Origin: Bacteroidales bacterium
Lineage (GTDB): Bacteria > Bacteroidota > Bacteroidia > Bacteroidales > P3
Direction of reading: 5' to 3'
DNA: 43,056 nucleotides
Assembly: GCA_034178965.1 (NCBI GenBank)
Contig: JAXFQM010000019.1
Coordinates: forward strand, 1-43,056
The notes beneath the pieces were generated by a model. It made no database searches, was not told the DNA's origin, and saw only the letters and a list, made by a program, of their open reading frames with translations. Position numbers and translations under genes: made by a program. Positions within the stretch are counted from its first letter, which is position 1. Each line of letters opens with the position of its first letter. This document shows, in pieces, positions 378-42,314 of the stretch.

Positions 378-425
378 GAAAATATTATGCTTGGTGTCTG
401 GGGGCTGTCCGGCCCTCCTCGCCAG

Positions 426-1361: not shown

Positions 1362-1441
1362 CTTGCTTAATTGCTCTTCTTTTTATATAACTTATTATAT
1401 TATTAACGATTGGATATTCCGAGCATGGCGGAACGAATAGG

Positions 1442-1449
1442 CAAAGATA
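1442..1449 (-). promoter_or_regulatory. Bacteroidetes sigma-A -7 box (TAtcTTTG on minus strand)
   Basis: Plus strand caaagata is TATCTTTG on the minus strand and matches the TAnnTTTG consensus. It lies about 80 nt upstream of the ATG at 1361. It is embedded in the recurring context gcaaagatacgattttttt. Confidence 0.5.
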
Positions 1450-1636
1450 CGATTTTTTTCTCACATGTTGGAAACTTTCTTCACCCTCCGCTGGTTTGTT
1501 GGCTTCACATCGACATTCACCCCACTTTCTGCAAAGACCTGCAAGACGCCAGCCAGGGGGCTACCAACGATGCGCCTGCCACACAACCCCCAAAACACGG
1601 AAAAGGCAGACCCGAGTGGTGGCAACCCAGCGGCTT

Positions 1637-1714
1637 GCCAGCACCGTGGCAGCACCGTGACGGCACCACAGTGCGGCCATAGTGCTGCCACGGCGCTGGC
1701 AGGGCGCTGGTAGG
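1637..1714. repeat. GC-rich 11-nt-phased dyad repeat (19-bp imperfect inverted repeat plus tandem 11-mers)
   Basis: GCACC starts at 1641, 1652 and 1663. G(T/C)GC starts at 1671, 1682, 1693 and 1704, all at 11-nt spacing. Arm 1637..1655 (gccagcaccgtggcagcac) is the reverse complement of 1682..1700 with one mismatch. It sits in the divergent intergenic region about 100 nt upstream of the first T9SS gene. Confidence 0.7.
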
Positions 1715-1802
1715 GGAAAAGATATCGTTGGGCAGCCCGAGAAAAAAAACGGCTTCGGCTGCAACGTTTCGTGCGCGAGACGTGTCTTACCAACAATAAA
1801 CA

Positions 1803-4574: not shown

Positions 4575-4639
4575 GGAGAGATTGTGCGAAGCAACAAAGA
4601 AGAAACATCACATCAAACCAAAATAGAACTTTCACTTTT

Positions 4640-7444
4640 ATGAAAAAATACACCCTCCTGTTGTTTGCCTCCCTGCTGACAGCCCCTGCCTTCCACGCGG
4701 CGGCGCAAAGCAACCCTTACTGCGCGGGCCTGAACAACCCCATCAATTTTGGGCTATACACCAACCCAAGCACGGGAAGATATAGCGGGAAAATAGGCAC
4801 CAAACAAAAAGCCACCAGCACGTGGAACAACCTGACGATGACATTCAACAACAATTACTCCGCCGGCCAACTGGCCGACCAGTCATCGGGCTCGAGTTGC
4901 AACGGCACATCGCTGCCCTACCACATGAAAAATTTCGTCATCAACGGCGCGGGTTTCGACCCCCTTACCAGCAACAACCTGCCCTTTTTGCCCGACTCCT
5001 CCTTCTCCCATTCCATTCGCATTGGCAATGGGTGCGGCGGCACGGAGGCAGTGCAACTGTGCTACGACTTCAACGTAACGGCAGACAACGCGCTGGTGAA
5101 AATCCACTTTGCCATGTCGCTGGAAAACGCACTGCACTCAGCAAGCGAACATGCAAACCCTGAATTCTGCATACGTGTGCTCAAACAAAACAGTAGCGGA
5201 GTCTATGTTCCCATTAGCGACACGCTGTCCTACATAACGCAAAGCCCCAACAGCAACGCCGAAGTAGGACCCACGCAAATCTTTCGCAACGGTGGAAACA
5301 CGGGAGGAGCTGGAAACGTGTACAAACCCTGGTCCCTGGTGGTGGTGAACCTGATTAACTACGTTTACCAAAATGTGCGCATTGAGGTAAGCACGGGCGA
5401 CTGCGGCTATGTTGCGCACTATGGATACGGCTATTTGGCAGGAAACTGCGAGCCTGTGAAACTGACCGCATCGGGGTGCGCTTCGGGCGCCTCCGACACC
5501 ATCGCCGTCATCAGCGCCCCCTCCAGCCTTAAATCCTACCAATGGTACATGCACAATACAGGCGTTACCACGCCCGGAGACCTCGACTTGAACAACTACA
5601 CCATCATGACGGGGGACACGAACAAGGACTTGTATTTGCGCAGTGCCGACTTCGTTCGCACAAACACAGGCGGCACGTCCGACACCCTCGGGCAGCGCAC
5701 CTTCCTATGCCGCATGGTGTCGTTCATGAACCCCCAATACCCAGTGGTGACAATGCTAACAACAACCGTGGGCAATCTAAAGCCCACCCTGTACGTAGAC
5801 TCCACCTTCAGTTGTGACGGCACTGTCTCCCTTACAGACCGCAGCATCGTGCTTTTCAACGCAGGCAACGACAGCAACAATGTGGACACCTCCAGCACCA
5901 GGTGGAAGTTTTATTCCACCTCAGAACCCACCGACGCCAGCCTTTTGGACTCCATTACCGGCGGCACCGGCTCTTACCGATTTGACACCCCTGGCCCCCA
6001 CAGCGTGGTGGTGCGCACCCGCTCTTACAACGTCAACAAGCCGTGCTGGAACGAAAAGACCATACACATCCGCTCGCTGCTGGCCCCGACGCCGCAAATC
6101 ACATTCGAGAACATGCCCGCAGGACACACCGCCTACTGCCTGGGCGACACGGTATCCATCCTGGACATGAGCATGAACCCCTGCAACGAAATACAGCGCA
6201 CTTCCTACCGGATATATGCCATCCACAAAGCAAACGGCGTGATAGACACGGTGGAGAAGACGGGACCCGCCATTGGCAACGCGAGGTACAGATTTATTTG
6301 CGACACCACGCACACACGAGTGGAAATGTGGACACGCACCAACGATTTCACCATGCGCGACACCAACAACGACGGCACGGACGACAGAGTGTATTGCTAC
6401 GCCTACCTTGACACCGTGGTGCCCGCTGAAAAATACCCCACCCTTACCGTGCTGGGCGACACCATAGTGTGCAACGGCAACAACAGCGAAGTGAGCGTGC
6501 TAAGCGACGTGCAGGGATGCTCTTTCACCTGGTACAGGCAAATGAACGGCGCCTCGCCCATTAGCACTGTGGCGAATTACAGCGAACCCAACGTCACCTC
6601 CCCAAAGAAATACTACGTGAAAGCCACCTCGCCACGCGCCGGATGCGTCACCTGGGACAGCATCGACATCCAGTTGGTGAAACCCACCCTGGATGCGCCT
6701 ATCACCGAAATGTGTACCGACGAACAGGTTACGCTCTATGCGGGTGGCGCCTCCTCCTACACATGGACGGCCATGCCCGACGACCTCTCTTTGGCTGGGC
6801 AAGAAGACAAAGACACCATCAGCGTATCGCCGAGGCAAACCACCACCTACACCCTCGTGGGACACGGCAGCAACGGCTGCAACGCCAATCCCCTTTCCAT
6901 CCAAGTGAAGGTGTTCCCCTACCCCGTGCCGGCATTCACGCTAACGCCAGGCTTCATCGACTCGGAAAAACCCACCGTTCAATTCAACGACCAGTCGGCA
7001 TTCGGCGTCACCACGCTGTGGAACTTCGGCAACGGCATCACCAGCACACAGCGCACGGTAAGCCACACATTCTCCGACATTAGCCAAGACAGCCTTCTGG
7101 TGAGCCTCACCAGCGGCAACGAACTGGGCTGCAAAAGCGACACTTCTTTCTACCTGCAAGTAGACCTCTTTGCCGTATGGTTCCCCAATACCATCACCCC
7201 CACCCTCAATTCCAACAAGGAGTTCCGCGTGTTCACACAAAACAAACTACAATTCTACAGCCTATACATCTACGACCGCCGCGGACAACTGGTGTTCCAC
7301 AGCACCGACCAAAACGAGGCATGGGACGGATTTTACAAAGGCCTGTTGTGCAGCCAAGGCGCATATGTCTACGTGTGCAACTACCGACGCGACGGCACCT
7401 ACGAAATCACCACCCGTAAGGGCACTTTCCTCTTGCTGCAATAA
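4640..7444 (+). CDS. T9SS type-B sorting-domain surface protein, paralog of the upstream gene
   Basis: I place the start at the internal ATG 4640 (MKKYTLLLFASLLTAPAFHAAAQSNPYC...). This gives a signal peptide collinear with the upstream paralog. The track's 4448 start would overlap that gene. The architecture is the same, and the C-terminus is FPNTITPTLNSNKEFRV...YSLYIYDRRGQLVFHS...AWDGFYKG..CSQGAYVYV...GTFLLLQ. Confidence 0.85.
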   Translation: MKKYTLLLFASLLTAPAFHAAAQSNPYCAGLNNPINFGLYTNPSTGRYSGKIGTKQKATSTWNNLTMTFNNNYSAGQLADQSSGSSCNGTSLPYHMKNFVINGAGFDPLTSNNLPFLPDSSFSHSIRIGNGCGGTEAVQLCYDFNVTADNALVKIHFAMSLENALHSASEHANPEFCIRVLKQNSSGVYVPISDTLSYITQSPNSNAEVGPTQIFRNGGNTGGAGNVYKPWSLVVVNLINYVYQNVRIEVSTGDCGYVAHYGYGYLAGNCEPVKLTASGCASGASDTIAVISAPSSLKSYQWYMHNTGVTTPGDLDLNNYTIMTGDTNKDLYLRSADFVRTNTGGTSDTLGQRTFLCRMVSFMNPQYPVVTMLTTTVGNLKPTLYVDSTFSCDGTVSLTDRSIVLFNAGNDSNNVDTSSTRWKFYSTSEPTDASLLDSITGGTGSYRFDTPGPHSVVVRTRSYNVNKPCWNEKTIHIRSLLAPTPQITFENMPAGHTAYCLGDTVSILDMSMNPCNEIQRTSYRIYAIHKANGVIDTVEKTGPAIGNARYRFICDTTHTRVEMWTRTNDFTMRDTNNDGTDDRVYCYAYLDTVVPAEKYPTLTVLGDTIVCNGNNSEVSVLSDVQGCSFTWYRQMNGASPISTVANYSEPNVTSPKKYYVKATSPRAGCVTWDSIDIQLVKPTLDAPITEMCTDEQVTLYAGGASSYTWTAMPDDLSLAGQEDKDTISVSPRQTTTYTLVGHGSNGCNANPLSIQVKVFPYPVPAFTLTPGFIDSEKPTVQFNDQSAFGVTTLWNFGNGITSTQRTVSHTFSDISQDSLLVSLTSGNELGCKSDTSFYLQVDLFAVWFPNTITPTLNSNKEFRVFTQNKLQFYSLYIYDRRGQLVFHSTDQNEAWDGFYKGLLCSQGAYVYVCNYRRDGTYEITTRKGTFLLLQ

Positions 7445-13788: not shown

Positions 13789-15390
13789 TTGAAAGAAAGT
13801 GATAATATGATACCAGAATTCAATGAAAACGAGTTGCCATTTGTGCAACGTGCGGAGCGATATTGTGCTGGTGACGAGCAATGCGTCTCCTCTGTGCGCA
13901 CCAAACTGATGACGTGGGGCGCCGACAGACAGCTTATTGAGCGAATACTCCAGTACTTGTGCCGCGAAGACTTCATCAATGAACAACGCTATGCCCACGC
14001 CTATTGCAAAACCAAGATGCGCGGCCAAAAATGGGGGCGCATCAAACTTTCCTACCAACTGCGCAGCAAGTTGTTACCGCGCGAGGTGGTGGAAGAGGCC
14101 ATCGCCTCCATCGACCCCGAGGAATACCACCAAATCATGATAGATTTGGCCGTAAAAAAGTGGAAAGAACTGGAACACGACACCTTGAAAGGGCGCAGCA
14201 AACTGGCTTACTATCTGCAAAGCCACGGATACGAGGCAGGGGAAATCCAGGATGCACTGAAAGAGGTGACGGGCGATGGACGCATAGATAAGGAGATAGG
14301 GGAAGAGGCGGGTGACGCTAAGAAGAAAGGCAGTGGCCGCGCCCTCATCACGCTGGCCCTATTGCTGCTGGCTGGCGGAATGGCCTCGGCACAGAACGAT
14401 ACGGCAGACCTGAAAATCAAGCATAAAGGCACTTGGACCACCTCCAGCACCCCTGCGCTGAAACTGGACCAACACTATTACCAAAACTGGTCAGCCACGG
14501 GTATCTCGCAATTTTCGTTCCTTGGCACTTTCGATGGCGACTACAAATATTCCGCAGAAAAGTTCACATGGGACAATGTGGCGAACCTGGCGCTGGGTCT
14601 CTATTGGCAGGACCTGGATGGCGACACCTCGCAACACGGCCTGCGCGCCTTCGAAAGCCGCAGAAAAAACGACGACAAGATTGACCTCACCTCCACGTTC
14701 TCAATGAAACTGCGCGACCCCTGGAACCTGAACGCCATCGCCAACTTCAAAAGCCAATTCTTTCCAGGCTACAACTACACAGCCACCGACACCGCGCTGA
14801 TGAGCAACTTCATGGCACCAGCCTATCTCACCACCTCCATTGGTTTTGAATGCAAGAAAGAATTTTGGAATATCTCATTTTCATTCCTCACAGGAAAGAC
14901 CACCTTCCTGCTGAACGAGGACGTAGTGGCGGCAGGCCAGTTCTATGGCGTGGACACCAGCGGCGGAGCCAGGATATACGCAGGGTTGGGCAGTTACTTC
15001 AAATTCTACTTCAAAAAGGAAGTGGCCAAAAACCTTCTCTTCTACACGCGGCTTGAGTTGTTCTACGACTACCGCAAACCTCGCTACCACGACAACATCA
15101 CCCGGAACGACCCCGTCGCCTATGGCGCGTGGGACGATGTCTCCATGATGGACGCCAATGCCTGGAAACGAGGCACTTATTGCCTATTCCACGACACAGA
15201 TATAGACTTCGAATACAAACTGGAATATCGCTTCAACAATTGGCTGGCATGCTATACCGCGCTGCACACCAAATACGACAGCGATTTTGCAGGTACGCAC
15301 CGTTTCTTCGGCAAAGAAGACAGCCATTGGCAACTTTACGAAAGCACTGGCGTACAAATATACTTCAATTGGAAGACCCCTTCGACCTAA
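13789..15390 (+). CDS. recX: single ORF fusing a RecX-like regulator (about aa 1-165) to a DUF3078-like outer-membrane protein (about aa 185-533) with an internal signal peptide
   Basis: The N-terminal part has RecX-type helical repeats (...RAERYCAGDEQCVSSVRTKLMTWGADRQLIERILQYLCREDFINEQRYAHAYCKTKMRGQKWGRIKLSYQLRSKLLP...). A linker follows, then KKKGSGRALITLALLLLAGGMASAQ (signal-peptide-like). The remainder is rich in beta strands and aromatics (W..........Q.YYQNWSATG...). No stop codon separates the two parts in this frame. Confidence 0.6.
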   Translation: MKESDNMIPEFNENELPFVQRAERYCAGDEQCVSSVRTKLMTWGADRQLIERILQYLCREDFINEQRYAHAYCKTKMRGQKWGRIKLSYQLRSKLLPREVVEEAIASIDPEEYHQIMIDLAVKKWKELEHDTLKGRSKLAYYLQSHGYEAGEIQDALKEVTGDGRIDKEIGEEAGDAKKKGSGRALITLALLLLAGGMASAQNDTADLKIKHKGTWTTSSTPALKLDQHYYQNWSATGISQFSFLGTFDGDYKYSAEKFTWDNVANLALGLYWQDLDGDTSQHGLRAFESRRKNDDKIDLTSTFSMKLRDPWNLNAIANFKSQFFPGYNYTATDTALMSNFMAPAYLTTSIGFECKKEFWNISFSFLTGKTTFLLNEDVVAAGQFYGVDTSGGARIYAGLGSYFKFYFKKEVAKNLLFYTRLELFYDYRKPRYHDNITRNDPVAYGAWDDVSMMDANAWKRGTYCLFHDTDIDFEYKLEYRFNNWLACYTALHTKYDSDFAGTHRFFGKEDSHWQLYESTGVQIYFNWKTPST

Positions 15391-30246: not shown

Positions 30247-30732
30247 ATGGCGTTATTGGTTGGTAAAGAGTACTGTAAAGTGGATATCAACGGCCGCTTT
30301 AAGTTCCCAAATGCCCTAAAAAAGCAGTTGGAAGGGGACGAAATGCGCTTCGTGGTCCGCGACAGCGACTATGCCGACTGCTTGGAATTGTGGCCCTATG
30401 GCAGTTTCATGGCTGAAGCCGAAATACTGCAGCAGCGTTTGAACCTGTATGACAAGCGGGACCGCCGCCTGCTGCGCAAACTTTCGGAAGGCAACATCGT
30501 GGAGTTGGACGCTAGCGACAGAATGATGATACCTCCGGAGCAGAAGCCGAGACTGCACAACGCAAAGGACATAGTGCTGCAATCCATGGGCAAATTCATC
30601 GAGGTGTGGGACAGGGATGCCTATCAACGCCAAGACGAAGAAAACACCGACGTAGCCACGATAGCCAACGAACGGCTGGGCTCGACGGGCAATGTAAATG
30701 GAAAGGACTGCGGCACAAATGGAGTATCATGA
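30247..30732 (+). CDS. mraZ: division/cell-wall cluster transcriptional regulator MraZ
   Basis: 161 aa. The N-terminus (...KVDINGRFKFPNALKKQL) and the second half (...LDASDRMMIPPEQ) form the duplicated SpoVT-AbrB-like MraZ modules (DxxGR-type motifs). It is the first gene of the dcw cluster. Confidence 0.88.
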   Translation: MALLVGKEYCKVDINGRFKFPNALKKQLEGDEMRFVVRDSDYADCLELWPYGSFMAEAEILQQRLNLYDKRDRRLLRKLSEGNIVELDASDRMMIPPEQKPRLHNAKDIVLQSMGKFIEVWDRDAYQRQDEENTDVATIANERLGSTGNVNGKDCGTNGVS

Positions 30733-31639
30733 ACCCGTAATGCTTAACGAGAGCGTAGACGCCCTCTGCATTCGTCCCGACGGCACATACGTGGATGTCA
30801 CTTTCGGCGGCGGCGGGCACTCGCGTGCCATCTTAGCACAGCTGGGAGACAGCGGGCGTCTGCTGGCGTTCGACCAAGACAAGGATGCCGCCGCCAACGC
30901 CATCAACGACCCGCGCTTCACCCTCATCGGAGAAAACTTCCAACATCTGAAAAACTACCTGCGGTTATATGGCGTGCGACGGGTGGACGGGCTGCTGGCC
31001 GACCTCGGCATCAGCAGCCACCAAGTGGACGACGCTCAACGCGGCTTCTCCTTCCGCGCCGACGGCCCGCTGGACTTAAGGATGGACCAAAGGGGCTCCA
31101 CCACGGCCGCCGCTTTGGTGAACACCTTGGGCGAAAGCGAACTGGCACGACTGCTGCGACTATATGGCGAACTGCCGAACGCCGCCGCCATAGCACACTC
31201 CATCTGCCTGGCACGCAAGGAACAAAACATAGAGACCACGTGGCAACTGAAGAACGCCGTGGCAAGGCAACTGCCCCGAGGCGCGGAAAACAAGCACCTG
31301 GCCATGTTGTTCCAAGCCCTGCGCCTGGAGGTGAACGGCGAAATGGAGGCCCTACGGCAAATGTTGGCACAAGCCGTGGAACTGCTGGACGAAGGAGGGC
31401 GACTGGCCATCATCTCCTATCATTCACTCGAAGACCGTCTGGTGAAGAACGTGATGAAGACCGGCAATCCGGAAGGGGAACTAAAGAAGGACTTCTTCGG
31501 GAACCCCCTTGTACCGCTAAAACAAATTGTACGCAAACCCCTTACCCCCAGCCCTGAAGAGGTTGGACGCAACCCACGCAGCCGCAGCGCAAAACTACGC
31601 GTGGCAGAGAAGTTAGAGCAAAAAAACAAAAGCATTTAA
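30719..31639 (+). CDS. rsmH: 16S rRNA (cytosine1402-N4)-methyltransferase RsmH
   Basis: Motifs seen: MEYHEPVMLNESVDAL, ...DVTFGGGGHS..., ...DLGISSHQVD..., ...SYHSLEDR.... The track ORF begins at 30698. I prefer 30719 because RsmH proteins typically start just before YH.PV. Either way it overlaps the mraZ end. Confidence 0.88.
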   Translation: MEYHEPVMLNESVDALCIRPDGTYVDVTFGGGGHSRAILAQLGDSGRLLAFDQDKDAAANAINDPRFTLIGENFQHLKNYLRLYGVRRVDGLLADLGISSHQVDDAQRGFSFRADGPLDLRMDQRGSTTAAALVNTLGESELARLLRLYGELPNAAAIAHSICLARKEQNIETTWQLKNAVARQLPRGAENKHLAMLFQALRLEVNGEMEALRQMLAQAVELLDEGGRLAIISYHSLEDRLVKNVMKTGNPEGELKKDFFGNPLVPLKQIVRKPLTPSPEEVGRNPRSRSAKLRVAEKLEQKNKSI

Positions 31640-31650
31640 CCCTTACCGCC

Positions 31651-32142
31651 ATGGCCAACACATTTAGGAACAAAAAAGCCGAAGAAGGACTGGACGAAGA
31701 CCCCAACGGCCAAATTCCCGGGGAGCCGCCGCAGGACGAAGTCCCGCAGCAAGAGGAACAGGAAAACGCAAAAGTGGAGCATGAAGCGGACGATAATGGC
31801 GCCGCGGCGCCGAAGAAAAGCCGCAAGCGCAACATGGCCAGCAACCTCTTCGGCGGAGAATTCCTGTTGAAAGACTGGGTGCGCCGACAACGTTGGCTGT
31901 TGCTCATGATAGTGGGGTTCTGTTTGCTGCTGGTGAGCAACCGCTATGTAGTGGAACACCTGATGCGCGTAAAGATGAACACAGAAGAACGCATCAAATA
32001 TCTGCGGGAGCAACGCATACAGATGAAACAAGAGTTTCAAGACAACGTGAAAATCTCACACATAGCCAGCAAACTGGACAGCACGGGCGTGGGGCTTATA
32101 GCCGGACCGCCCTACGAACTGGAGGAAGAATCAAAAAAGTGA
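31651..32142 (+). CDS. ftsL: FtsL-like cell division protein (Bacteroidetes type)
   Basis: 163 aa. An acidic N-terminal tail is followed by a single TM helix (WLLLMIVGFCLLLV) and a coiled-coil-like segment. It sits in the canonical slot between rsmH and ftsI. Confidence 0.65.
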   Translation: MANTFRNKKAEEGLDEDPNGQIPGEPPQDEVPQQEEQENAKVEHEADDNGAAAPKKSRKRNMASNLFGGEFLLKDWVRRQRWLLLMIVGFCLLLVSNRYVVEHLMRVKMNTEERIKYLREQRIQMKQEFQDNVKISHIASKLDSTGVGLIAGPPYELEEESKK

Positions 32143-32176: not shown

Positions 32177-34417
32177 ATGGATAAAGACAATAAGCATCGA
32201 CTGGACGGCTTGGGCATCTACTTTCTGTTACTGCTGGCAGTGGCAGGGGGAGCCATTGTGTACGGCATGGTCAAAGTGCAATGGATAGATGGGGACATGT
32301 GGCGCAAGCAAAGTTACCCCCGCGAGGAGGGACTGCAGGTGCAAAAAGCGCATCGTGGCAACATCTACAGCAGCGATGGCAAAATATTGGCCACCACAGT
32401 GCCCATCTGCAACCTGTATCTCGACCTGGGACACCAAAACCAAAAGAACAAATATGGCAACGACAAACTCGACTCATTGGGAAACCCCATCGTGACGGGG
32501 CCCATTCCAGACTCCTCGTTCCACAAGTATTTGGACCAAGTGTGTGCCCTACTCCACGATGCCTTCCCACAGCAAAGCGCCGCCGAGTTCCGCCAGCGAA
32601 TACTGGACGGCCGGGAGAGAAAAAACAACCGATGCGTGCTGATAAAACGCGGCGTACCATACAGCACCTGGCGGCAAATATGCAACCTGAACCGACATTG
32701 GAACCACGGCGTAGTGAAGACCGTGGACGGGAAAAGCGTCATCTATGAACGCCGCGCGCACACCTACGGAAACTTGGCCGAAAACACCATTGGTTTCCGC
32801 AACAGCATGGAAAGCGAGACCTATACAGGCTTGGAAGGCTATTATAACGCCACATTGAAAGGCAGCGACGGGCGCTATCGCGTCCGCCGTCTCACACGAG
32901 GCATTTGGCTACCTATAGAAAGCAGGAGTGACCCTGTGAACACCGATGGCGACACACTGGACAACATGATTGTGCGCCCTGTGGTGAACGGAAAAAGCAT
33001 AGTGAGCACCATAGACACACGCTTTCAAGACATTGCCGAAAGCGCACTGCGCGATGCTCTGCGAAAATTCGGAGGGGAAAGCGGATGCGCTATATTAATG
33101 GAAATGAGCACGGGATATGTTTTGGCTTGCAGCAACCTAAGCATCGATACGCACGCACATGAATACCTGGAGATGCCCAACCGAAACATTGCCGTGAGCG
33201 ACCGCTACGAACCCGGCAGCACGTTCAAGACCGTAGTCCTCGCCGCCATGATGAACGCACAGGCTTTAGACACCAGCATGATGCTGCGCGTGGGCTACAA
33301 AAACTTTGGAGGGGTAAACGGCGAGATAAAGGACGACCACACATGGCAAGATAGAGACACCTTGAGCCTAAAACAAGTGATGGAGCAAAGCAGCAACGTG
33401 GGCATCAGCGAACTGGGATGGAAACTATATGGCAACCAACGCGACACACTGAAGAACCTGGTGACACGTATTTTCCCTTACCAAATATTGAATTTGGACT
33501 TGACAGCAGGCGAATACAAAGGCCGCGTGAACGACTTGAACGCCTCGCGACGCGACTTTCTCAATTTCTGCTATGGCTATAGCACCAGCGTGAGCCCCAT
33601 GCAACTCATCACATTCTACAATGGACTGGGAGCAGGCGGACGCATGGTGAAGCCGCTGTTCTGCCGCGCCATCCTGGACGGAAACAAGGAGATACCCGTG
33701 AACCCCGTTGTGCTGAACGAACATATTTGCAGCCCCCACACTGCGGCTGTGATGAAAGACCTGCTGGTGGGCGTGGTGGAAAACGGAACGGGCAACAACA
33801 TCAAGAACAACACCTACGGCATAGCCGGCAAGACCGGCACTGCCGTGCACAGTTATAAGGACTTGCGACGATACAACGCCTCCTTCGTGGGATTCTTCCC
33901 GGCTGAAAAGCCCAAATACACCTGCTTGGTGGTGGTGAAAGACATTCATGCCTATGGCCGCCAAAGCGCCGTGGTATTCAAAGCCATAGCGGACTGCGTT
34001 ATGGCCATAGACACCACGCTGGGCAACATACCCATTGAGCGACTGACACTGGAAAGCCAAAGAAATGGAACGCTTCGTCTGCCTTACGTGAGGCGCGCCA
34101 ATCAGCAGCAACTGATGAAAATATACCGCACATTGCGCCTCAACTACTTAGGCAGCGACAGTTCCAGCCATTGGTGCGCCTTTAGCCCCGCAGAAGACAG
34201 CACCGCCACGCCAGCGCACTACGTGGGTTATCGCCCCGCCGCCAACGTGGTGCCCGACTGCACGGGGATGACGGCACGCGATGCGCTGCTAATGCTGCGT
34301 TCCAATGGCTATGCCGTGCGTTTTTCCGGATGCGGCAAAGTTATAAGCCAAACACCCAGTGCGGGAAGCAAGGCCCCAAAAGGAACAACGACGGTATTCT
34401 TGAAACTGGGAGTATGA
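32177..34417 (+). CDS. ftsI: penicillin-binding protein (FtsI/PBP3-type peptidoglycan D,D-transpeptidase) with C-terminal PASTA domain
   Basis: 746 aa with an N-terminal TM anchor. Transpeptidase motifs STFK (GSTFKTV), SSN (QSSNVG) and KTG (GKTGTA) are present. The C-terminal PASTA-like segment is VPDCTGMTARDALLMLRSNGYAVRFSGCGKVISQTPSAG. Confidence 0.9.
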   Translation: MDKDNKHRLDGLGIYFLLLLAVAGGAIVYGMVKVQWIDGDMWRKQSYPREEGLQVQKAHRGNIYSSDGKILATTVPICNLYLDLGHQNQKNKYGNDKLDSLGNPIVTGPIPDSSFHKYLDQVCALLHDAFPQQSAAEFRQRILDGRERKNNRCVLIKRGVPYSTWRQICNLNRHWNHGVVKTVDGKSVIYERRAHTYGNLAENTIGFRNSMESETYTGLEGYYNATLKGSDGRYRVRRLTRGIWLPIESRSDPVNTDGDTLDNMIVRPVVNGKSIVSTIDTRFQDIAESALRDALRKFGGESGCAILMEMSTGYVLACSNLSIDTHAHEYLEMPNRNIAVSDRYEPGSTFKTVVLAAMMNAQALDTSMMLRVGYKNFGGVNGEIKDDHTWQDRDTLSLKQVMEQSSNVGISELGWKLYGNQRDTLKNLVTRIFPYQILNLDLTAGEYKGRVNDLNASRRDFLNFCYGYSTSVSPMQLITFYNGLGAGGRMVKPLFCRAILDGNKEIPVNPVVLNEHICSPHTAAVMKDLLVGVVENGTGNNIKNNTYGIAGKTGTAVHSYKDLRRYNASFVGFFPAEKPKYTCLVVVKDIHAYGRQSAVVFKAIADCVMAIDTTLGNIPIERLTLESQRNGTLRLPYVRRANQQQLMKIYRTLRLNYLGSDSSSHWCAFSPAEDSTATPAHYVGYRPAANVVPDCTGMTARDALLMLRSNGYAVRFSGCGKVISQTPSAGSKAPKGTTTVFLKLGV

Positions 34418-35871
34418 AACTAAGTGAAATAATAAAAGGCATTGACTGCCAAACGAAGCAGTTCGTAGACGTTGAAATAAGCGACATCGCCTTCGACTCG
34501 CGCCAAGTGGCGAAAGGCATGCTATTCGTGGCACAACGTGGCACGCACGTAGACGGACACCAATATATTGACAACGCCGTAAAAAACGGCGCCGCTGCCG
34601 TCCTATGCGAAACGCTGCCCGTCAAGCAAAAGAAAGGCGTGGCATATCTTGTGACGCCAAACAGCGACGAAGCCTTGGGGGTGGCGGCAAGCAACTTTTA
34701 TGAAAACCCCAGCCAGAGGCTGAAACTGATTGGCATCACTGGCACCAACGGCAAGACCACCAGCGTCACCCTGCTGCATCACCTGTTCCGCCTGCTTGGG
34801 GTGCATGCAGGCCTCCTCTCCACCATTGTCAACAAGGTAGACGAGGACGAATGGGAAGCACACCACACTACCCCCGACGCCTTGGAACTGAACAGCCTGC
34901 TGCGCAAAATGGCGGACGCCGGATGCAAATACTGCTTTATGGAGGTGAGTAGCCACGCCATAGCACAGCGACGCATCGCAGGTCTCACTTTCGCTGGAGG
35001 CATCTTCAGCAACGTCACGCACGACCATCTCGACTACCATAAAACGATGGCAAACTACATTGCCGCCAAGAAAAAATTCTTTGATGACCTGCCACCTGAG
35101 GCTTTCGTCCTCACCAATCTCGATGACAAGAACGGCATGGTGATGGTGCAAAACACCAAGGCCACGGTGAAGACATACAGCCTACTGCATCCAGCAGACT
35201 ACAAGGCACGCGTGCTGGAGGACACTTTTCAGGGCATGCACCTCGAAATAAACGGAAAGGACGTCTGGTGCCGCTTGGCTGGACGCTTCAACGCGCAAAA
35301 CCTCACGGCCATCTATGCTGTGGCCCGTTTGTGTGGCGTGGAGGAAGACGAGGCCTTGCGCACGTTGAGCCAACTGGAACCCGCACCCGGACGTTTTCAG
35401 CACGTGCGCGGAAATGAGGTGGATGCCATTGTGGATTATGCACATACGCCCGACGCCTTACAAAACGTGATGGACGCCATAAACGAGATGCGGCAACGCC
35501 GCCAACGCCTCATCGTGGTGGTGGGATGCGGGGGCGACAGGGACAAAGCGAAGCGCCCCAAAATGGCCAAAATAGCCGTGACGGGGGCGGACCGCGTAAT
35601 CCTTACCAGCGACAACCCTCGCACCGAAAACCCCGAGGCCATCCTCGATGACATGGAAACTGGCCTCTCCAACGAAGAACGCGTAACCGCAATACGCATC
35701 GCCGACAGACGCTCCGCGCTGCGCGCCGCCGTGATGATGGCCAAGCAAGGGGACATTATTTTGGTGGCTGGCAAGGGCCATGAAAACTATCAAGAAATCA
35801 ATGGCGTGCGCCACCATTTTGACGACCAAGAGGAACTTAGGATCCTTTTCGACCAACACAATGACCATTAA
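34414..35871 (+). CDS. murE: UDP-N-acetylmuramoyl-L-alanyl-D-glutamate--2,6-diaminopimelate ligase
   Basis: I place the start at 34414 (MKLSEIIKGI...), which overlaps the ftsI stop as ATGA. Motifs seen: P-loop GITGTNGKTT, DYAHTPDAL, and the meso-DAP specificity motif DNPR (TSDNPRTE). Confidence 0.9.
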   Translation: MKLSEIIKGIDCQTKQFVDVEISDIAFDSRQVAKGMLFVAQRGTHVDGHQYIDNAVKNGAAAVLCETLPVKQKKGVAYLVTPNSDEALGVAASNFYENPSQRLKLIGITGTNGKTTSVTLLHHLFRLLGVHAGLLSTIVNKVDEDEWEAHHTTPDALELNSLLRKMADAGCKYCFMEVSSHAIAQRRIAGLTFAGGIFSNVTHDHLDYHKTMANYIAAKKKFFDDLPPEAFVLTNLDDKNGMVMVQNTKATVKTYSLLHPADYKARVLEDTFQGMHLEINGKDVWCRLAGRFNAQNLTAIYAVARLCGVEEDEALRTLSQLEPAPGRFQHVRGNEVDAIVDYAHTPDALQNVMDAINEMRQRRQRLIVVVGCGGDRDKAKRPKMAKIAVTGADRVILTSDNPRTENPEAILDDMETGLSNEERVTAIRIADRRSALRAAVMMAKQGDIILVAGKGHENYQEINGVRHHFDDQEELRILFDQHNDH

Positions 35872-35886
35872 TACCCCCACTCTCCT

Positions 35887-37062
35887 ATGTTATATTATTT
35901 ATTTGAATGGCTTGACAAGATAGACTTCCCTGGAGCGGGGGCCTTCCATTACATCTCCACCCGTTCCGCCCTGTCATTCATTGTGAGTTTGTTGCTGATG
36001 CTGTTGTGCGGCAAGCCATTCATCAAATGGCTTAAGAAGAAACAAATTGGCGAAACCGTGCGGCATTTGGGGCTTGAGGGTCAAGAAGCCAAAGCGGGAA
36101 CACCAACCATGGGCGGCCTGCTAATACTGGGAGCCATTGTCATCCCCACATTACTATTTGCCAAACTGGACAACCCCTACATCCTTATCATGCTCTTCAC
36201 TACCGTGTGGCTGGGATTAGTGGGTTTCATGGACGACTATATTAAAGTGTTTCGCCACAACAAGGAGGGGTTGGCTGGAAAATATAAAATCATGGGACAG
36301 GTGGTTTTGGGCATTGTGGTGGGCATCTCCATCATGTACATCCCCGGCTTGGCGGAAAACGCCACACGAACCACCATTCCTTTTGTCAAGGGGCACGAAC
36401 TGGACTATTCCAAGATTATCACATGGATGGGGCCTTGGGCCGAGAAATGGGTGTGGCTGCTGTACGCGCTGGTGGTCATTTTGGTGGTCACCGCCATGAG
36501 CAACGCCGCCAACCTCACCGACGGCATCGATGGCCTGGCAACGGGCGTGGCGGCAGTGAACGGAGGCGCTTTGGCTATCCTTGCCTGGTTGAGCGGCAAC
36601 GTCATCTTCGCGCAATACCTTAATATCATGTATCTTTCCAATATCGGTGAACTGGCTGTCTTCAGCACCGCCTTTATGGGTGCCACGCTGGGCTTTCTTT
36701 GGTTCAACACGCACCCCGCCGAGATATTCATGGGAGACACCGGCTCCTTGGCTTTGGGGGGCATCATCGCCGTCTTTGCCTTGCTTATCAAGAAAGAATT
36801 GCTTCTGCCCCTGCTTTGCGGCATCTATTTAGTGGAGGACCTTAGCGTTATCATACAACGCATTGGTACCAAGAATGCAAGAAAAAAGCGCCACATACCG
36901 GCTGGCACGCCAGTGCCAGTGGAGATGCGACCATTTCTTATGACACCATTGCATCACCACTATCAGAAAAAAGGAATGAAAGAAGAGAAGATTGTGATGC
37001 GCTTTATCATCGTGGCCATTCTACTCGCTATTACAACCATCATCACTTTGAAGATTAGATAA
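35887..37062 (+). CDS. mraY: phospho-N-acetylmuramoyl-pentapeptide-transferase
   Basis: 391 aa, polytopic. Motifs seen: ...GTPTMGG..., ...NAANLTDGIDGLA..., ...GDTGSLALGG..., ...PLHHHY.... Confidence 0.9.
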   Translation: MLYYLFEWLDKIDFPGAGAFHYISTRSALSFIVSLLLMLLCGKPFIKWLKKKQIGETVRHLGLEGQEAKAGTPTMGGLLILGAIVIPTLLFAKLDNPYILIMLFTTVWLGLVGFMDDYIKVFRHNKEGLAGKYKIMGQVVLGIVVGISIMYIPGLAENATRTTIPFVKGHELDYSKIITWMGPWAEKWVWLLYALVVILVVTAMSNAANLTDGIDGLATGVAAVNGGALAILAWLSGNVIFAQYLNIMYLSNIGELAVFSTAFMGATLGFLWFNTHPAEIFMGDTGSLALGGIIAVFALLIKKELLLPLLCGIYLVEDLSVIIQRIGTKNARKKRHIPAGTPVPVEMRPFLMTPLHHHYQKKGMKEEKIVMRFIIVAILLAITTIITLKIR

Positions 37063-37065
37063 GTC

Positions 37066-37605
37066 ATGACCATAGAAACTTTAGCACGACAGGGAAATGC
37101 GGAAAGCCATGGTGGGCTGGCAGGCATGGACATTGCAAAATTGAGCCAACTACGCAACGAACAGATGAAAAACTGCTTCCGCCATTTCGACACCACGCCC
37201 CATCGCCTGGAATATGTAGCCAAAATAGGCGGAACGGAATTTATTAACGATGCCGCGGCGCGCAATGTGAGCGCAACTTGGTACAGTCTGGATAATATCG
37301 ACGGGCCTGTGGTGTGGATTGCAGTGGGCAGCAGCAAAAAGGAGAACTACTCCATGTTGAGGCAAGTGGTGCAGCAAAAGGTGCGTGTGCTTATTTGCGT
37401 GGGAGACCACATTGACCAACTAATGAGCGACTTCACCAGCCTCATTCCCGTGGTGGAAGAGGCATTCACGGTGGAGGAAGCCGTGCACAAGGCTTATTAC
37501 AACCAGGCAGAAGTGCGCAAAGTGATTTTTTCGCCCGCTTGCGACTGCGGTATTGCAAACAAGCATATCGGAGAACGTTATTGCAACGAAATTAACGAGT
37601 TATGA
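37066..37605 (+). CDS. MurD C-terminal-domain-only protein (truncated, motif-degenerate murD homolog; possible relic/pseudogene)
   Basis: 179 aa in the murD slot. It aligns by eye to E. coli MurD from about ...GLPHRFEVV...INDSKATN... to the C-terminus (here TTPHRLEYVAKIGGTEFINDAAARN ... VIFSPACDCGIANKHIGERY). There is no N-terminal Rossmann-like domain and no GxxGKT/S P-loop. The ATG lies 3 nt after the mraY stop, and the stop overlaps the ftsW ATG. Confidence 0.7.
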   Translation: MTIETLARQGNAESHGGLAGMDIAKLSQLRNEQMKNCFRHFDTTPHRLEYVAKIGGTEFINDAAARNVSATWYSLDNIDGPVVWIAVGSSKKENYSMLRQVVQQKVRVLICVGDHIDQLMSDFTSLIPVVEEAFTVEEAVHKAYYNQAEVRKVIFSPACDCGIANKHIGERYCNEINEL

Positions 37606-38822
37606 GACGTCTTGCCAACATATTCAAGGGCGACAAGGTGATATGGGCTGTGTTCATGCTGCTCACGCTCATCTCGCTCATCGCCGTTTACAGTGCCATA
37701 GGGCGCGTGGCCGTCACTGGCGGCCATTCTCCCGTTTCGTCGTGGGGCAAGCACGTGTTGTTCGTGACACTCGCATACCTCATCGTGATTGCTTTTGCAA
37801 ACCTCAACTATCGTCGCTTTGCCAAGTGGGCGCGTGTGGCGTTTTGGGTTTCCATTGCATTAGTGGTGTATGTGCTTGTTTTTTGCGAAGGCCGTTGGAT
37901 CTCCATACCCGGTTTCGGCTCTTTCCAGCCCAGCGAACTTACCAAGGTGACCCTATTGGCCATGTTGGCCGGCATGCTGACAAAAAACAAAGAACACCTG
38001 GACGACTTGGGCCTTTTCTTTCAAATTATGTTCATCGTCATCATCGCCGCAGGCTTCATCCTCCCAGAAAACCTGTCCACGGCTTTGCTGCTCGTCGTCG
38101 TCTGCTTTGTAGAACTTTATTTTGGCGGAATAAACCGCAAGTATTTTTGGCGCACGGTGGCCTTTTTGGGCATTTTGGGCGCGGTGGGCCTCACCGCCGC
38201 CGTAGTGACCTACAAAAACGGCAATCCAGGCAACGGCATCTACGAACGCTCTGCCACTTGGGGGCACCGCATAGACAGTTGGATGAACCCCAATCCACAA
38301 GAACTGACGCAAGAGAACATGGCACGCATGGCCATTGCATCGGGGAAAATAAAGGGGGTGGGAGTTGGACACACCGTTCATGCCCGTTTGATGACACAGG
38401 CGGAGAACGACTTTATCTACGCCATCATCATAGAGGAATCGGGCATGGGAGCGGGTCTCTTTGTGCTGTTTCTCTATACCATGCTCTTCTATCGTTGCCT
38501 TAAGATGGCCAGACGATGCAAAGGCATGTTCGGCTCGTTGATGTTGGTGGGATATGGCTCATTAATATACATACAGGCTTTGGTGAACATGGCTGTGGCT
38601 GTGGGTGCCATGCCTGTAACAGGGCAAACGCTGCCGCTCATCAGCAATGGTGGAACGGCGTACCTGTGCATGGCCATGGCGGTGGGAGTCATACAGTCGG
38701 TATGCTATGACACGCTAAAACAAGAAAAGGAAATCAAGGATAAAATACACGACGACATGGAGTTTGAGGAGGTAAAAAACTTAAGCGAACAGATAATGAA
38801 CGGAACGAACGCAAACCTGTAA
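37602..38822 (+). CDS. ftsW: FtsW/RodA/SpoVE-family peptidoglycan glycosyltransferase (FtsW)
   Basis: 406 aa, about 10 TM segments. It carries SEDS-type motifs (...FQPSELTKV..., ...DFIYAIIIEESG..., ...TGQTLPLISNGGTA...) and sits in the dcw slot. Confidence 0.88.
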   Translation: MRRLANIFKGDKVIWAVFMLLTLISLIAVYSAIGRVAVTGGHSPVSSWGKHVLFVTLAYLIVIAFANLNYRRFAKWARVAFWVSIALVVYVLVFCEGRWISIPGFGSFQPSELTKVTLLAMLAGMLTKNKEHLDDLGLFFQIMFIVIIAAGFILPENLSTALLLVVVCFVELYFGGINRKYFWRTVAFLGILGAVGLTAAVVTYKNGNPGNGIYERSATWGHRIDSWMNPNPQELTQENMARMAIASGKIKGVGVGHTVHARLMTQAENDFIYAIIIEESGMGAGLFVLFLYTMLFYRCLKMARRCKGMFGSLMLVGYGSLIYIQALVNMAVAVGAMPVTGQTLPLISNGGTAYLCMAMAVGVIQSVCYDTLKQEKEIKDKIHDDMEFEEVKNLSEQIMNGTNANL

Positions 38823-38843: not shown

Positions 38844-39962
38844 ATGAAGGCAATCATCAGCGGAGGAGGCAGCGGAGGGCATATTTTCCCCGCCATAGCC
38901 ATAGCAAACACCATCAAGAAACGTCACCCTGGCGCGAATGTTCTTTTTGTCGGCGCCAAAGGAAAGATGGAGATGGAAAAGGTGCCTGAGGCTGGCTACA
39001 AGATAGAAGGCCTGCCCATAACTGGCTTGCAACGCAAACCGACGTTGAAGAATCTGTTTTTCAACATGACGGTGCCTTTCAAAATGGTGCGCAGCCAACT
39101 GATGGTAAAACGCATCCTGCATGATTTCCAGCCCGACATAGTGGTGGGGGTGGGTGGCTATGCTAGTGCGCCAACGTTGAAGACGGCTGCTAAAATGGGC
39201 TTACCCACACTGCTGCAGGAGCAGAACTCCTACCCCGGACTCACCAATAAGATGCTCGCCAAAAGCGCCAAAACCATTTGTGTTGCCTACGAAGGTTTGG
39301 AACAATTTTTCCCTGCCGAAAAGATTGTATTAACAGGCAACCCCGTGCGCGCCGCCATAGAAAACATGACATGTACGCGCGAAGAGGGCATTCGCCATTT
39401 CGCACTGAAAGAAGAACGCCCCGTGGCGTTATGCGTGGGAGGCAGCTTGGGTGCCAGCAGCATCAACCGAATGATAATACGCCATCTTGACTTTTTTATC
39501 AGTCATAAAATTCAACTCATTTGGCAAACAGGCAAATGGATGTATAACGAGGCGGTACAAGCAGTGCAGGAGGCTGGTGTGGGCGAGTGGGTTGAGGTCC
39601 ACCCTTTCATCAACCATATGGACTATGCCTATGGAGCCGCCGACGTGGTCATTTCCCGCGCAGGTGCCATCGCCATCAGCGAACTTTGCCTGGTGGGCAA
39701 ACCTGTCATCCTAATCCCCTCTCCCAATGTAGCCGAAGACCACCAGACCCGTAACGCCCTCGCTCTCGCCAATAAAGGAGCTGCCGCGTTGATTCCCGAT
39801 GCGGAATGCGACCCCAAAGGCCTGCACACACTGCTTGAATTGATGAACGACGCGCAACGGCGCAAAACAATGAGCGAGGCCATTGTGGAACTTGGAAAGC
39901 GACAAGCAGCAGAGAAAATTGTGGATGAAATAGATAAAATCGTTTTGGAGGTTAAGGGTTAA
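38844..39962 (+). CDS. murG: undecaprenyldiphospho-muramoylpentapeptide beta-N-acetylglucosaminyltransferase
   Basis: 372 aa. Motifs seen: GGGSGGHIFPAIAIA, ...GGSLGA..., ...SRAGA....E........I..P....DHQ..NA. Confidence 0.9.
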   Translation: MKAIISGGGSGGHIFPAIAIANTIKKRHPGANVLFVGAKGKMEMEKVPEAGYKIEGLPITGLQRKPTLKNLFFNMTVPFKMVRSQLMVKRILHDFQPDIVVGVGGYASAPTLKTAAKMGLPTLLQEQNSYPGLTNKMLAKSAKTICVAYEGLEQFFPAEKIVLTGNPVRAAIENMTCTREEGIRHFALKEERPVALCVGGSLGASSINRMIIRHLDFFISHKIQLIWQTGKWMYNEAVQAVQEAGVGEWVEVHPFINHMDYAYGAADVVISRAGAIAISELCLVGKPVILIPSPNVAEDHQTRNALALANKGAAALIPDAECDPKGLHTLLELMNDAQRRKTMSEAIVELGKRQAAEKIVDEIDKIVLEVKG

Positions 39963-39986: not shown

Positions 39987-41501
39987 ATGAAATACTATTT
40001 TTTAGGAATAGGAGGAATTGGCATGAGCGCCTTGGCTCGCTACTTCAAGCAGCGTGGCGACGACGTGTGGGGCTACGATAGAACCCCTTCTCCCCTCACC
40101 AAGGAATTAGAAAAAGAGGGCATCTCTATCCACTATGCAGACAACCCTGTAGAAATTCCCGCCGACATAGACCTGGCCATATATACGCCTGCAATACCAG
40201 AAGACACGCTGGAGTTTCAAGCGTTGAAGGCAAGTGGCGTGCGCATGGAAAAACGATCCCAAATGTTGGGCGAACTGACTCGGGACAAGAAATGCATCGC
40301 CGTGGCTGGTAGCCATGGAAAAACGACCACTACGGCTATGATAGCACATCTGCTAAACGCCAGCAAACAAGGATGCAGCGCTTTCCTTGGCGGGATTTCG
40401 AAGAATTTCCACAGCAACCTGCTTGTCAACAACGACAGCGAGTGGATGGTAGTGGAAGCAGACGAATACGATCGCAGTTTCTTTCAACTACATCCTTATT
40501 ACTCTGTCATCACGGCCACCGACCCAGACCACTTGGACATTTACGGCAACCACAAGAACTTAATAGAGGCCTTTGAGCAGTTTGCAAACCAAACCGACCC
40601 CGCTGGACGTATCTTTCTAAAAGAGGGGGTTGGCTTCCTTGACGAGAGTAACGAAACGATAGGGCATGGCAAACACTTTACTGGCAAATTCATGGTTGTC
40701 GGCAAGGATATCCAAGAACTTCAAGGCGACACAACCCATACAGAATCGGCGCGTTCTTTAACGAACCACTGCCAACACGACCACGGAGAAGCCCTTCACG
40801 GCTTGAAACTGGCAGAAGGTCTCTCCGCACAAACTTATAGTGCCGACAGTCTTGTTAGCGATTACTACGCCATCAATGTGCGCTCCCATCGCGGAAACAT
40901 CTTTTTCGACCTACGCACCCCACAAGGCGTATATTACGACCTACAACTCGTCAACTCCAGCTTTTTTAACGTGGAAAACGCCGTGGCTGCCTGTGCCGTA
41001 GCTTTCTCCGTGGGACTTAGTGAATATGAGGTGCGCGCCGCGTTGAAAAGCTTCAAAGGCGTGGTGCGCCGTTTTGACTACCACATAAACGAACCGTCTA
41101 TCGTCTATATCGACGACTACGCCCACCATCCGCAGGAGATATCTGCCGCTATCGCGTCGGCAAGGCTCCTTTACAAGGACAAGCGCATTGTGGGTGTATT
41201 TCAGCCACACCTTTATAGCCGAACGGCAGATTTGTACAAGGAGTTTGCCGAGGCGTTATCGCCCTTGGACGAAATTGTACTGATGGATATTTATCCCGCT
41301 CGTGAGAAGCCGATTCCTGGCGTCACTTCACGGCTTATCTTAAATGAGATACACAGCATGAACAGGTACATCGTAGACCGCAAGGACGTTCCCAGCGTGG
41401 TTGTTGCACTTTGCCCCGATGTGGTCATCACAATGGGTGCTGGCGACATAGACCGTCTGGTGCCTGACATAGAAAAAGCCCTTCGCGAAAACATGGAATG
41501 A
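39987..41501 (+). CDS. murC: UDP-N-acetylmuramate--L-alanine ligase (with a lineage-specific internal insertion)
   Basis: 504 aa. Motifs seen: GIGGIGMSALA, P-loop GSHGKTTTT, EADEYDRSF, DDYAHHPQEI. A His/Gln/Thr-rich segment at about aa 217-283 has no counterpart that I recognise in MurC. Confidence 0.88.
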   Translation: MKYYFLGIGGIGMSALARYFKQRGDDVWGYDRTPSPLTKELEKEGISIHYADNPVEIPADIDLAIYTPAIPEDTLEFQALKASGVRMEKRSQMLGELTRDKKCIAVAGSHGKTTTTAMIAHLLNASKQGCSAFLGGISKNFHSNLLVNNDSEWMVVEADEYDRSFFQLHPYYSVITATDPDHLDIYGNHKNLIEAFEQFANQTDPAGRIFLKEGVGFLDESNETIGHGKHFTGKFMVVGKDIQELQGDTTHTESARSLTNHCQHDHGEALHGLKLAEGLSAQTYSADSLVSDYYAINVRSHRGNIFFDLRTPQGVYYDLQLVNSSFFNVENAVAACAVAFSVGLSEYEVRAALKSFKGVVRRFDYHINEPSIVYIDDYAHHPQEISAAIASARLLYKDKRIVGVFQPHLYSRTADLYKEFAEALSPLDEIVLMDIYPAREKPIPGVTSRLILNEIHSMNRYIVDRKDVPSVVVALCPDVVITMGAGDIDRLVPDIEKALRENME

Positions 41502-41528: not shown

Positions 41529-42314
41529 ATGAAACGCAGTACACAGACAGCCATTTACGTCGTTGGAACCCTAATATTATTGGGGTTGCTGGTGTTTAGT
41601 AACATGGCGCGTCGTAACGCTCCTGTGCGCAGCGTTAAAGCCATTATCGACTACCAGTCGGGTGACACTCTGCTTTCTACCCAACACTTGGAAGAGGAAG
41701 TGACAAAGAAGATGCCTACATTGTTAGGGATGATGGTGAAAGACGTGAAGAAAGAGGAAGTGTGGAAAGCCGCAACGAGCAACCCCTTTGTTCAAGAATG
41801 CCGCGTGAGTTTTGGAGTGGGTGGCGACGTAAGGCTTCAAGTGCAGCAGCACGTTCCAATACTGCATCTCTTCTATTTAGGGCGTGAATTCTATTTGGAC
41901 AAGGACGGCAACGCCTTGCCCCCCAGCGGGGAACACATGGCCGACGTAATGATTTGTAACGGATACTTTAACATCAAATTGCCGCAAGTCCTCGATTCCG
42001 TCTCATATGAGCAGATGAAAAAAACGCGTAACCAACGTCTCATCCGTGTTTACAACCTGGCTCTTTTTCTCTACAACAATCCCGAGTACGGTGTGTTGTT
42101 CGACCAAGAATATATGAACGAGGAGGGAGACCTTTGCCTGGTTCCAAAGGTAGGCGACCACATTGTCGTGGTGGGTTCCGACGATGACCTCGACCGCAAG
42201 TTCCACGACCTGCTGGCTTTCTATCGCGAAGGCCTGCAACAAGTGGGCTGGGACACCTACAGGCAGATAAGCTTAAAGTATAAACATCAGGTCATTGGCA
42301 CGAGGCGGGAATAA
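41529..42314 (+). CDS. ftsQ: cell division protein FtsQ/DivIB-like
   Basis: 261 aa with an N-terminal TM anchor (TAIYVVGTLILLGLLVF) followed by a POTRA-like region. It sits in the slot between murC and ftsA. Confidence 0.7.
   Translation: MKRSTQTAIYVVGTLILLGLLVFSNMARRNAPVRSVKAIIDYQSGDTLLSTQHLEEEVTKKMPTLLGMMVKDVKKEEVWKAATSNPFVQECRVSFGVGGDVRLQVQQHVPILHLFYLGREFYLDKDGNALPPSGEHMADVMICNGYFNIKLPQVLDSVSYEQMKKTRNQRLIRVYNLALFLYNNPEYGVLFDQEYMNEEGDLCLVPKVGDHIVVVGSDDDLDRKFHDLLAFYREGLQQVGWDTYRQISLKYKHQVIGTRRE

Follow-up and report, generated by a model that had tools for sequence, protein, structure and literature searches.

The window, by which we mean the whole 43,056-nt stretch of Bacteroidales DNA that was analysed, holds on its + strand the gene set of a typical Bacteroidota dcw cluster, running from mraZ (30247-30732), rsmH (30698-31639), an ftsL-like gene (31651-32142) and the PBP3 gene (32177-34417) through murE (34330-35871) and mraY (35887-37062) to ftsW (37602-38822), murG (38844-39962), murC (39987-41501) and an ftsQ-like ORF (41529-42314). 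Instead of a full murD, the interval between mraY and ftsW holds just an ORF of 179 aa with an ATG start (37066-37605, + strand), a stand-alone gene resembling the C-terminal domain of MurD, as the initial annotation had reported. Three nucleotides (GTC) lie between the TAA stop of mraY and the ATG of the short ORF, whose own TGA stop (37603-37605) overlaps the ftsW ATG at 37602 (ATGA), and the tight packing described earlier is thus confirmed on the window coordinates. The remaining dcw genes do look functional, as had been supposed: MurE (NF001126, 604 bits against a cut-off of 373), MurC (TIGR01082, 382 bits against 335) and MurG (286 bits) score above their curated NCBIfam cut-offs, and MraZ, RsmH, the FtsL-like protein, PBP3, MraY (Glycos_transf_4 and MraY_sig1) and FtsW (FTSW_RODA_SPOVE, 202 bits) match Pfam models above the gathering score. 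As listed, the ORFs of mraZ and rsmH overlap by 35 nt (30698-30732) and those of the PBP3 gene and murE by 88 nt (34330-34417); the true starts of rsmH and murE are probably downstream start codons.

MurC makes the substrate of MurD and MurE consumes its product, so the retention of murE in the cluster indicates that a D-Glu-ligase activity is still required. A search of the 43-kb window with an HMM of the MurD N-terminal part and with tblastn found no encoded Mur ligase besides MurE and MurC. Fusion of the MurD N-terminal part to one of these two enzymes was considered and rejected, as both have normal domain content and lengths, and the excess of MurC (504 aa) is due to 40 extra residues in a variable central-domain loop (40677-40796, residues 231-270). 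This insertion is common only to the window and its closest relatives, L087 and L088, MurC being 453-460 aa long in the rest of the clade.

Residues 23-159 of the 179-aa protein match positions 283-419 of the 441 in the murD model TIGR01087 with 97.7 bits, which falls below the curated cut-off of 211.95 bits, and Pfam Mur_ligase_C (PF02875) is found at 26.0 bits (E 1.9e-5), under its gathering score of 28.4. Most of the homologues have no precomputed Pfam match at all. The ORF gave no Pfam match to MurD_N, MurD-like_N or Mur_ligase_M, and so the UDP-MurNAc-binding domain and the central ATPase domain with its P-loop are absent, in agreement with the initial annotation. That annotation had also taken the ORF for MurD domain 3 alone, beginning just before the HRLE motif, which is wrong: the start lies 45 residues before HRLE, and in addition to domain 3 the ORF covers about 45 residues of the MurD central domain, which make up its last strand and two helices. 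The family profile aligns to residues 267-442 of Streptococcus agalactiae MurD (PDB 3LK7). In an AlphaFold2 model computed from the family alignment (pLDDT 81.5, pTM 0.76), residues 50-179 form a confident alpha/beta domain with pLDDT >90 except at 161-170 (86), and residues 1-23 (pLDDT <50) are predicted to be disordered when modelled alone. All of the top 33 Foldseek matches in the PDB are MurD (TM(query) 0.61-0.68, rmsd down to 2.3-2.9 Å over ~143 residues), with MurT, MurE, MurC, MurF and FolC ranking far behind. The structure prediction, which had been proposed as a check, therefore agrees with the assignment to MurD, and the protein is predicted to have the Rossmann-like alpha/beta fold of MurD domain 3.

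The N-terminal leader of the protein, residues 1-30 (MTIETLARQG..., 37066-37155, + strand), is homologous to the last beta-strand and the next helix of the MurD central domain. Its first ten residues reach a conservation block score of 0.83, with the family pattern M-[TN]-[ILF]-E-x-L-A-x-Q-G, and S. agalactiae MurD also has a Met where the 179-aa ORF starts. Gene callers often start the gene at Met21 (159 aa, P0001 and P0003) and thereby lose the part that is conserved best (37066-37128 in the window, 2345-2404 in L087). Because the leader is conserved in the relatives L087 and L088, we take the first ATG to be the true start. The form MT[IL]ExLAxQG is found in every lineage checked that has the short gene and no murD in the cluster (hereafter short-only), namely the rumen clade, P0055, P0344, P0349, P0398, P0400 and P0421.

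Individual sites were compared, in E. coli MurD numbering, between 86 members of the rumen/hindgut clade to which the window belongs and 117 full-length Bacteroidota MurDs; every motif residue of the E. coli reference sequence fell at its literature number. The full-length MurDs are 100% conserved at H267, N268, N271, H301, R302, E304 and N316-N322 as well as at S415, D417, F419, R425 and G426, and all 117 have F at position 416 and Y at 422 (L and F in E. coli). We take the Mur-synthetase invariants within the stretch covered by the ORF to be N268, N271, R302 and D317, of which the window gene has R302 and D317, with E at 268 and G at 271. The HRLE motif (H301-E304) lies at 37201-37212 (+), followed at 37246-37266 (+) by NDAAARN, a remodelled NDSKATN that keeps N316 and D317 and carries S318A, K319A and T321R, and at 37531-37584 (+) by SPACDCGIANKHIGERY, a remodelled form of the D-Glu loop (SPACASxDxFxNFExRG in MurD) that keeps SPA and has lost S415, carries L416G and lacks 422-423. 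The D-Glu-binding sites of the window protein are thus R at 321, C at 415, G at 416 and a deletion at 422. A lysine stands at the position equivalent to K348 (VGSSKKENY) and is not conserved across the clade.

The rumen/hindgut branch as a whole keeps R302 (98%), E304 (96%), N316 (97%), D317 (100%) and the SPA motif, has Y for H301 in 77% of its members, and has lost N268, N271, S415 and R425. The replacements S318A (98%), K319A (90%), T321R (97%) and L416G (88%) predominate, and positions 422-423 are deleted in 86 of 86 members. The motif changes that the initial annotation had listed are all present in the window (INDAAARN, VGSSKKENY and SPACDCGIANKHIGERY), but its description of them as eroded was mistaken: the replacement residues are themselves conserved at 88-100%, which argues that the pocket was remodelled and did not decay. 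In this branch the D-Glu and ATP-side pocket has been rebuilt into a new conserved site consisting of A318, A319, R321, G416 and a shortened loop. Conservation within the family is highest in the first ten residues (MTIETLAxQG), in NDAAAR and in a C-terminal EVNEL, and the rumen/hindgut subfamily is marked by NDAA[AS]R, SPAC with the shortened loop and a C-terminal (E)(V/I)NEL, which appear in the window as NDAAAR, SPACDCG and EINEL. With two domains missing, and with N268, N271 and the D-Glu-binding residues gone, the earlier view that the product cannot be a Mur ligase by itself stands.

A protein search returned 55 homologues, nearly all of 176-180 aa and 40-81% identical, from uncultured Bacteroidales, and among GTDB species, each represented by one scanned genome, at least 86 carry the short gene. 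We fetched 80 of the loci, and every one with both flanks on the contig reads murE-mraY-short-ftsW-murG-murC. The carriers are rumen and hindgut MAGs of uncultured Bacteroidales, including GTDB family P3, together with sister lineages; among them is Candidatus Colimorpha, which corresponds to GTDB genus UBA1711 in family P3 (PMC8957277). The closest relatives of the window gene, in L087 (81% identical) and L088 (73%), have the same layout. A profile search of 1.84 billion representative proteins revealed many more proteins of ~176-185 aa starting at the same Met, and seven further such lineages that we looked up are all short-only, with the order mraY-short-ftsW: P0055 (L085), P0344 (L090, L091), P0349 (L176), P0398 (L092-L094), P0400 (L175), P0421 (L089, a 1.46-Mb NCBI MAG contig) and JGI contigs (L106, L122). 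Across 96 short-only loci the ORF starts with ATG in 93, and the spacer between mraY and the ORF measures 1-195 nt (median 36) and holds no remnant of the murD 5' part. The window gene shares all the traits of this family: a length within 176-185 aa, the conserved internal Met and leader, the place between mraY and ftsW, and a cluster without murD. Comparison of the mraY-ftsW interval among relatives, which the initial annotation had recommended, thus shows a short form conserved clade-wide and not the private relic of one genome. The same comparison excludes the loss of a segment of ~750 nt from this one assembly, since the layout is the same in 96 independently assembled loci.

In a neighbour-joining tree of MraY and MurG (745 columns) all short-only loci form one clade, with motif-intact forms on the basal branches and the degenerate forms, including the group of the window, nested inside. 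MraY and MurG were used because strong rate differences kept the neighbour-joining tree of the domain itself from distinguishing a single origin from several. Proteins of basal lineages such as P0421 and P0398 keep every catalytic and D-Glu residue of domain 3 and have lost H267 and N271. Because all short-only loci form a single clade with the intact forms at its base, our data suggest that the cluster lost the 5' part of murD once, long ago, and that the protein left over was then remodelled step by step. The truncation occurred in the common ancestor of the clade, whose members share one layout and one start. L089, L092 and L175 have in common an EngB-type GTPase and two acyltransferases upstream of mraZ (~400-3400), where the neighbours in the rumen clade differ, and these shared genes fit the grouping of the three loci on the MraY and MurG tree.

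The short gene evolves under constraint. Its median dN/dS over 306 pairs (Nei-Gojobori) is 0.26, with 0.01-0.17 in close pairs and about 0.08 between the window and L087 and L088; the comparison values are 0.23 for ftsW, 0.17 for murG and 0.13 for mraY. Constraint is uniform along the ORF, the leader having a dN/dS of 0.26 with a normal dS of 0.76, and identity between members drops to ~40% while length and frame stay. Uniformly low dN/dS with normal dS indicates that selection acts on the protein, and the short ORF is a real gene under purifying selection. The initial annotation had suspected as much from the packing and had named dN/dS as a measure of it; the neutral evolution expected of a plain recent pseudogene was not seen.

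Free copies of the domain also occur in other Bacteroidota, where a full-length murD is followed by a separate MurD-C-like ORF of 125-190 aa and then by ftsW. Such tandem ORFs were found in L004 (10001-10519), L086 (8517-9059), L096 (1582-2151), L100 (8895-9359), L117 (3862-4356), L118 (2647-3171) and L120 (3101-3580), the ORFs of these seven loci being 154-189 aa long, and also in L104; those of L118 and L120 are matched by hhalign with 96-98% probability. In four loci the gap between murD and ftsW holds a more remote ORF of 155-158 aa (L101 10562-11038, L108 10549-11025, L112 10557-11024 and L113 10560-11027); HMMER does not recognise these ORFs, and hhalign finds them colinear with the degenerate stand-alone family at 90% probability, so that they are probably extremely diverged members of the MurD-C family. 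An ORF-sized gap after a full murD was present in 10 of 62 sampled loci. The tandem paralogues fall in at least three separate places on the MraY and MurG tree, outside the short-only clade, and loss of the catalytic motifs is graded among them. Like the window gene, they encode a stand-alone protein resembling MurD domain 3, directly upstream of ftsW, with the catalytic motifs variably lost. They differ in standing beside a full-length murD and in having no MTIExLAxQG leader, which is conserved only in loci without an adjoining murD; the likeness in domain and position does not by itself imply orthology.

Since the initial annotation had concluded that D-Glu addition must be supplied from elsewhere, the available sequences were searched for a MurD N-terminal part or a relocated murD. 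With the N-part HMM and tblastn, applied to the window and 91 loci, only MurE and MurC were matched in loci without a full murD. In the JGI metagenome scan (at least 80 loci), every full-length murD among the matches listed adjoins mraY and/or ftsW, none being relocated, and in a set of 5.8 billion proteins the best 120 matches to the N-part profile are all MurDs of environmental Bacteroidia. Several apparent N-terminal fragments were rejected: P0126 (321 aa, N-terminal and central domains only) is a truncated gene call, and P0443, P0406, P0491 and P0405 are fragments or chimeras of full-length MurDs.

We give about an even chance to the interpretation that the 179-aa protein derives from MurD, has no catalytic role and serves the peptidoglycan-precursor or divisome machinery as an accessory module, the D-Glu ligase having its gene elsewhere in the genome. 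The 5' two-thirds of murD vanished from the dcw cluster in the common ancestor of a large Bacteroidales clade, and the remainder came to be translated from a Met conserved inside MurD. In the rumen and hindgut branch that holds the window, the D-Glu and ATP-side pocket was rebuilt to A318, A319, R321, G416 and a shortened loop, and on this interpretation the protein would no longer take part in ligation. Its old ligand face (R302, N316, D317, R321) may bind a small acidic or nucleotide ligand or a partner protein, and the leader, predicted to be disordered alone, might dock onto a putative partner by strand addition. In favour of the accessory interpretation are the retention of the gene in the same place under selection across 86 or more GTDB species, the domain-3 fold, a pocket that was remodelled and did not decay, and the single origin of the short-only loci. 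A canonical catalytic role as part of MurD is argued against by the absence of N268 and N271 and by the replacement or deletion of K319, T321, S415, L416 and F422, and a role for a free domain 3 has a precedent in the other Bacteroidota that carry a full murD and a separate MurD-C before ftsW. Two observations count against an accessory role. The basal P0421 and P0398 proteins keep every catalytic and D-Glu residue of domain 3, and these canonical forms fit catalysis in trans at least as well; and the restriction of the conserved leader to loci without an adjoining murD is what would be expected if it docked onto a separate N-terminal fragment.

The same observations bear on the tentative alternative of a split MurD, in which the ORF would encode the C-terminal subunit of a D-Glu (or altered-specificity) ligase made of two pieces, a fragment with the UDP-binding and ATPase domains would be encoded elsewhere, and the leader would complete the small beta-sheet of the central domain and so hold both pieces together. 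Such an arrangement would account for a break that lies inside domain 2 at a conserved Met and not at a domain boundary, for a leader that is present in every short-only lineage checked and absent from the tandem paralogues beside a full murD, and for the persistence of the ATP contacts R302 and D317 at 98-100% even in the rumen clade. The basal short-only proteins, moreover, keep all 16 domain-3 sites checked (H301, R302, E304, N316, D317, S318, K319 as K or R, T321 in 70%, S415, F416, D417, F419, Y/F422, E423, R425 and G426). However, no short-only protein has N271, a Mur-family invariant in the leader region, and even those that are otherwise canonical have lost it. N268 survives in just 30% of the intact-like forms and is missing from the rumen clade, and the D-Glu pocket (T321, S415, L416, F422) is replaced in the clade of the window. 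The window contains no N-terminal fragment, nor was one found in the 10 kb flanking each side of any short-only locus among the 91 scanned. Since free MurD-C paralogues whose motifs are mostly intact occur together with a full MurD elsewhere, intact motifs are no proof of catalysis in trans. A broader proposal, which we regard as doubtful, is that the clade has no canonical single-chain MurD and that position 2 of the stem peptide is added either by a two-piece enzyme with this protein as its C-terminal subunit, in which case the rumen-branch pocket (T321R, L416G, shortened loop) may bind differently or accept another substrate, or by a non-orthologous enzyme with this protein as its accessory.

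Explanations that would leave the protein without any function fare much worse, and both are effectively excluded. A functionless remnant, that is, a 5'-truncated murD pseudogene open by chance or only for translational coupling of mraY and ftsW, could explain why the ORF scores under the curated MurD and Mur_ligase_C cut-offs, why it evolves faster than mraY, murG and murC, and why NCBI annotates homologues as hypothetical proteins. It is nevertheless highly improbable in view of an open frame whose ATG start is conserved in 93 of 96 loci, a dN/dS of 0.01-0.26 with normal dS, new residues that are 88-98% conserved, and a length and frame kept at identities down to ~40%; and because spacers part the ORF from both neighbours in many relatives, coupling cannot explain constraint at the protein level. 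An assembly or binning artefact, with ~790 nt of murD missing, has the short interval itself in its favour and nothing more, and is scarcely conceivable given that the layout recurs in 96 loci produced by many separate projects and assemblers (RUG, RGIG, UBA, ENA, Logan, JGI), with a mraY-to-ORF spacer of 1-195 nt that contains no MurD N-terminal remnant.

Among known systems, MurD itself (TIGR01087; PDB 1UAG, 2UAG, 3LK7, 7U35) is the nearest, sharing with the window gene homology, the domain-3 fold with the last strand and helices of domain 2, the same dcw position, and R302, E304, N316, D317 and the SPA motif. The window gene differs from it in having neither the UDP-binding and ATPase domains nor N268, N271 and the D-Glu-binding residues. 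MurT of the MurT/GatD lipid II amidotransferase (PDB 6H5E, 6GS2) is likewise derived from a Mur ligase, has lost the N-terminal domain and has been put to new use on the stem-peptide D-Glu, and its structure matches the 179-aa protein weakly (Foldseek E 4e-5, TM 0.51). Unlike the 179-aa protein, MurT keeps the central ATPase domain, is catalytic and has GatD as its partner; a MurT-like function was rejected, as the 179-aa protein has no central domain and its ORF adjoins no gatD-like or glutaminase gene. EnvC and NlpD, which contain LytM domains, are degenerate-enzyme regulators of cell-wall enzymes in which a protein with a disabled active site is kept as a binding or regulatory module. The analogy to them is one of mechanism only, their fold and family being unrelated to the MurD-C protein.

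To our knowledge, MurD is regarded as an essential and universally single-chain enzyme of peptidoglycan synthesis. It is an antibiotic target and is among the markers used in bacterial phylogenomics. In a large, ecologically dominant, uncultured lineage, a derivative of one-third the length that is under selection has taken the conserved dcw place of murD, and related free MurD-C genes recur next to ftsW in other Bacteroidota. What is new is a family of stand-alone domains derived from a Mur ligase, which has conserved motifs of its own and extends across the clade. If the accessory interpretation is true, the protein would be a pseudoenzyme-type accessory factor not known before in cell-wall synthesis or division; if the gene instead encodes half of a split enzyme, that enzyme would be the first Mur ligase found to be split in nature, and its pocket may be altered. 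The family, made up of stand-alone proteins from the C-terminal third of MurD, is apparently undescribed: our literature search turned up no account of a MurD-C gene in Bacteroidetes, whether truncated, split or stand-alone, and nothing on the name 'glutamate ligase domain-containing protein'. That name and 'hypothetical protein' are the ones given to homologues at NCBI, while JGI calls them MurD, and because of these inconsistent labels, genome-completeness and pathway calls for these MAGs will be misleading.

Two regions upstream of the dcw cluster also deserve mention. Two adjoining large ORFs at 1803-7444 (923 and 998 aa) carry Ig_7/PKD repeats and CHU_C type IX secretion signal domains, and a CHU_C protein is also found upstream of the dcw cluster in L001-L003. 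At 13789-15390, a 533-aa ORF with a TTG start joins three RecX helical domains to DUF3078, and could be either a genuine fusion or a pair of genes mistaken for a single one.
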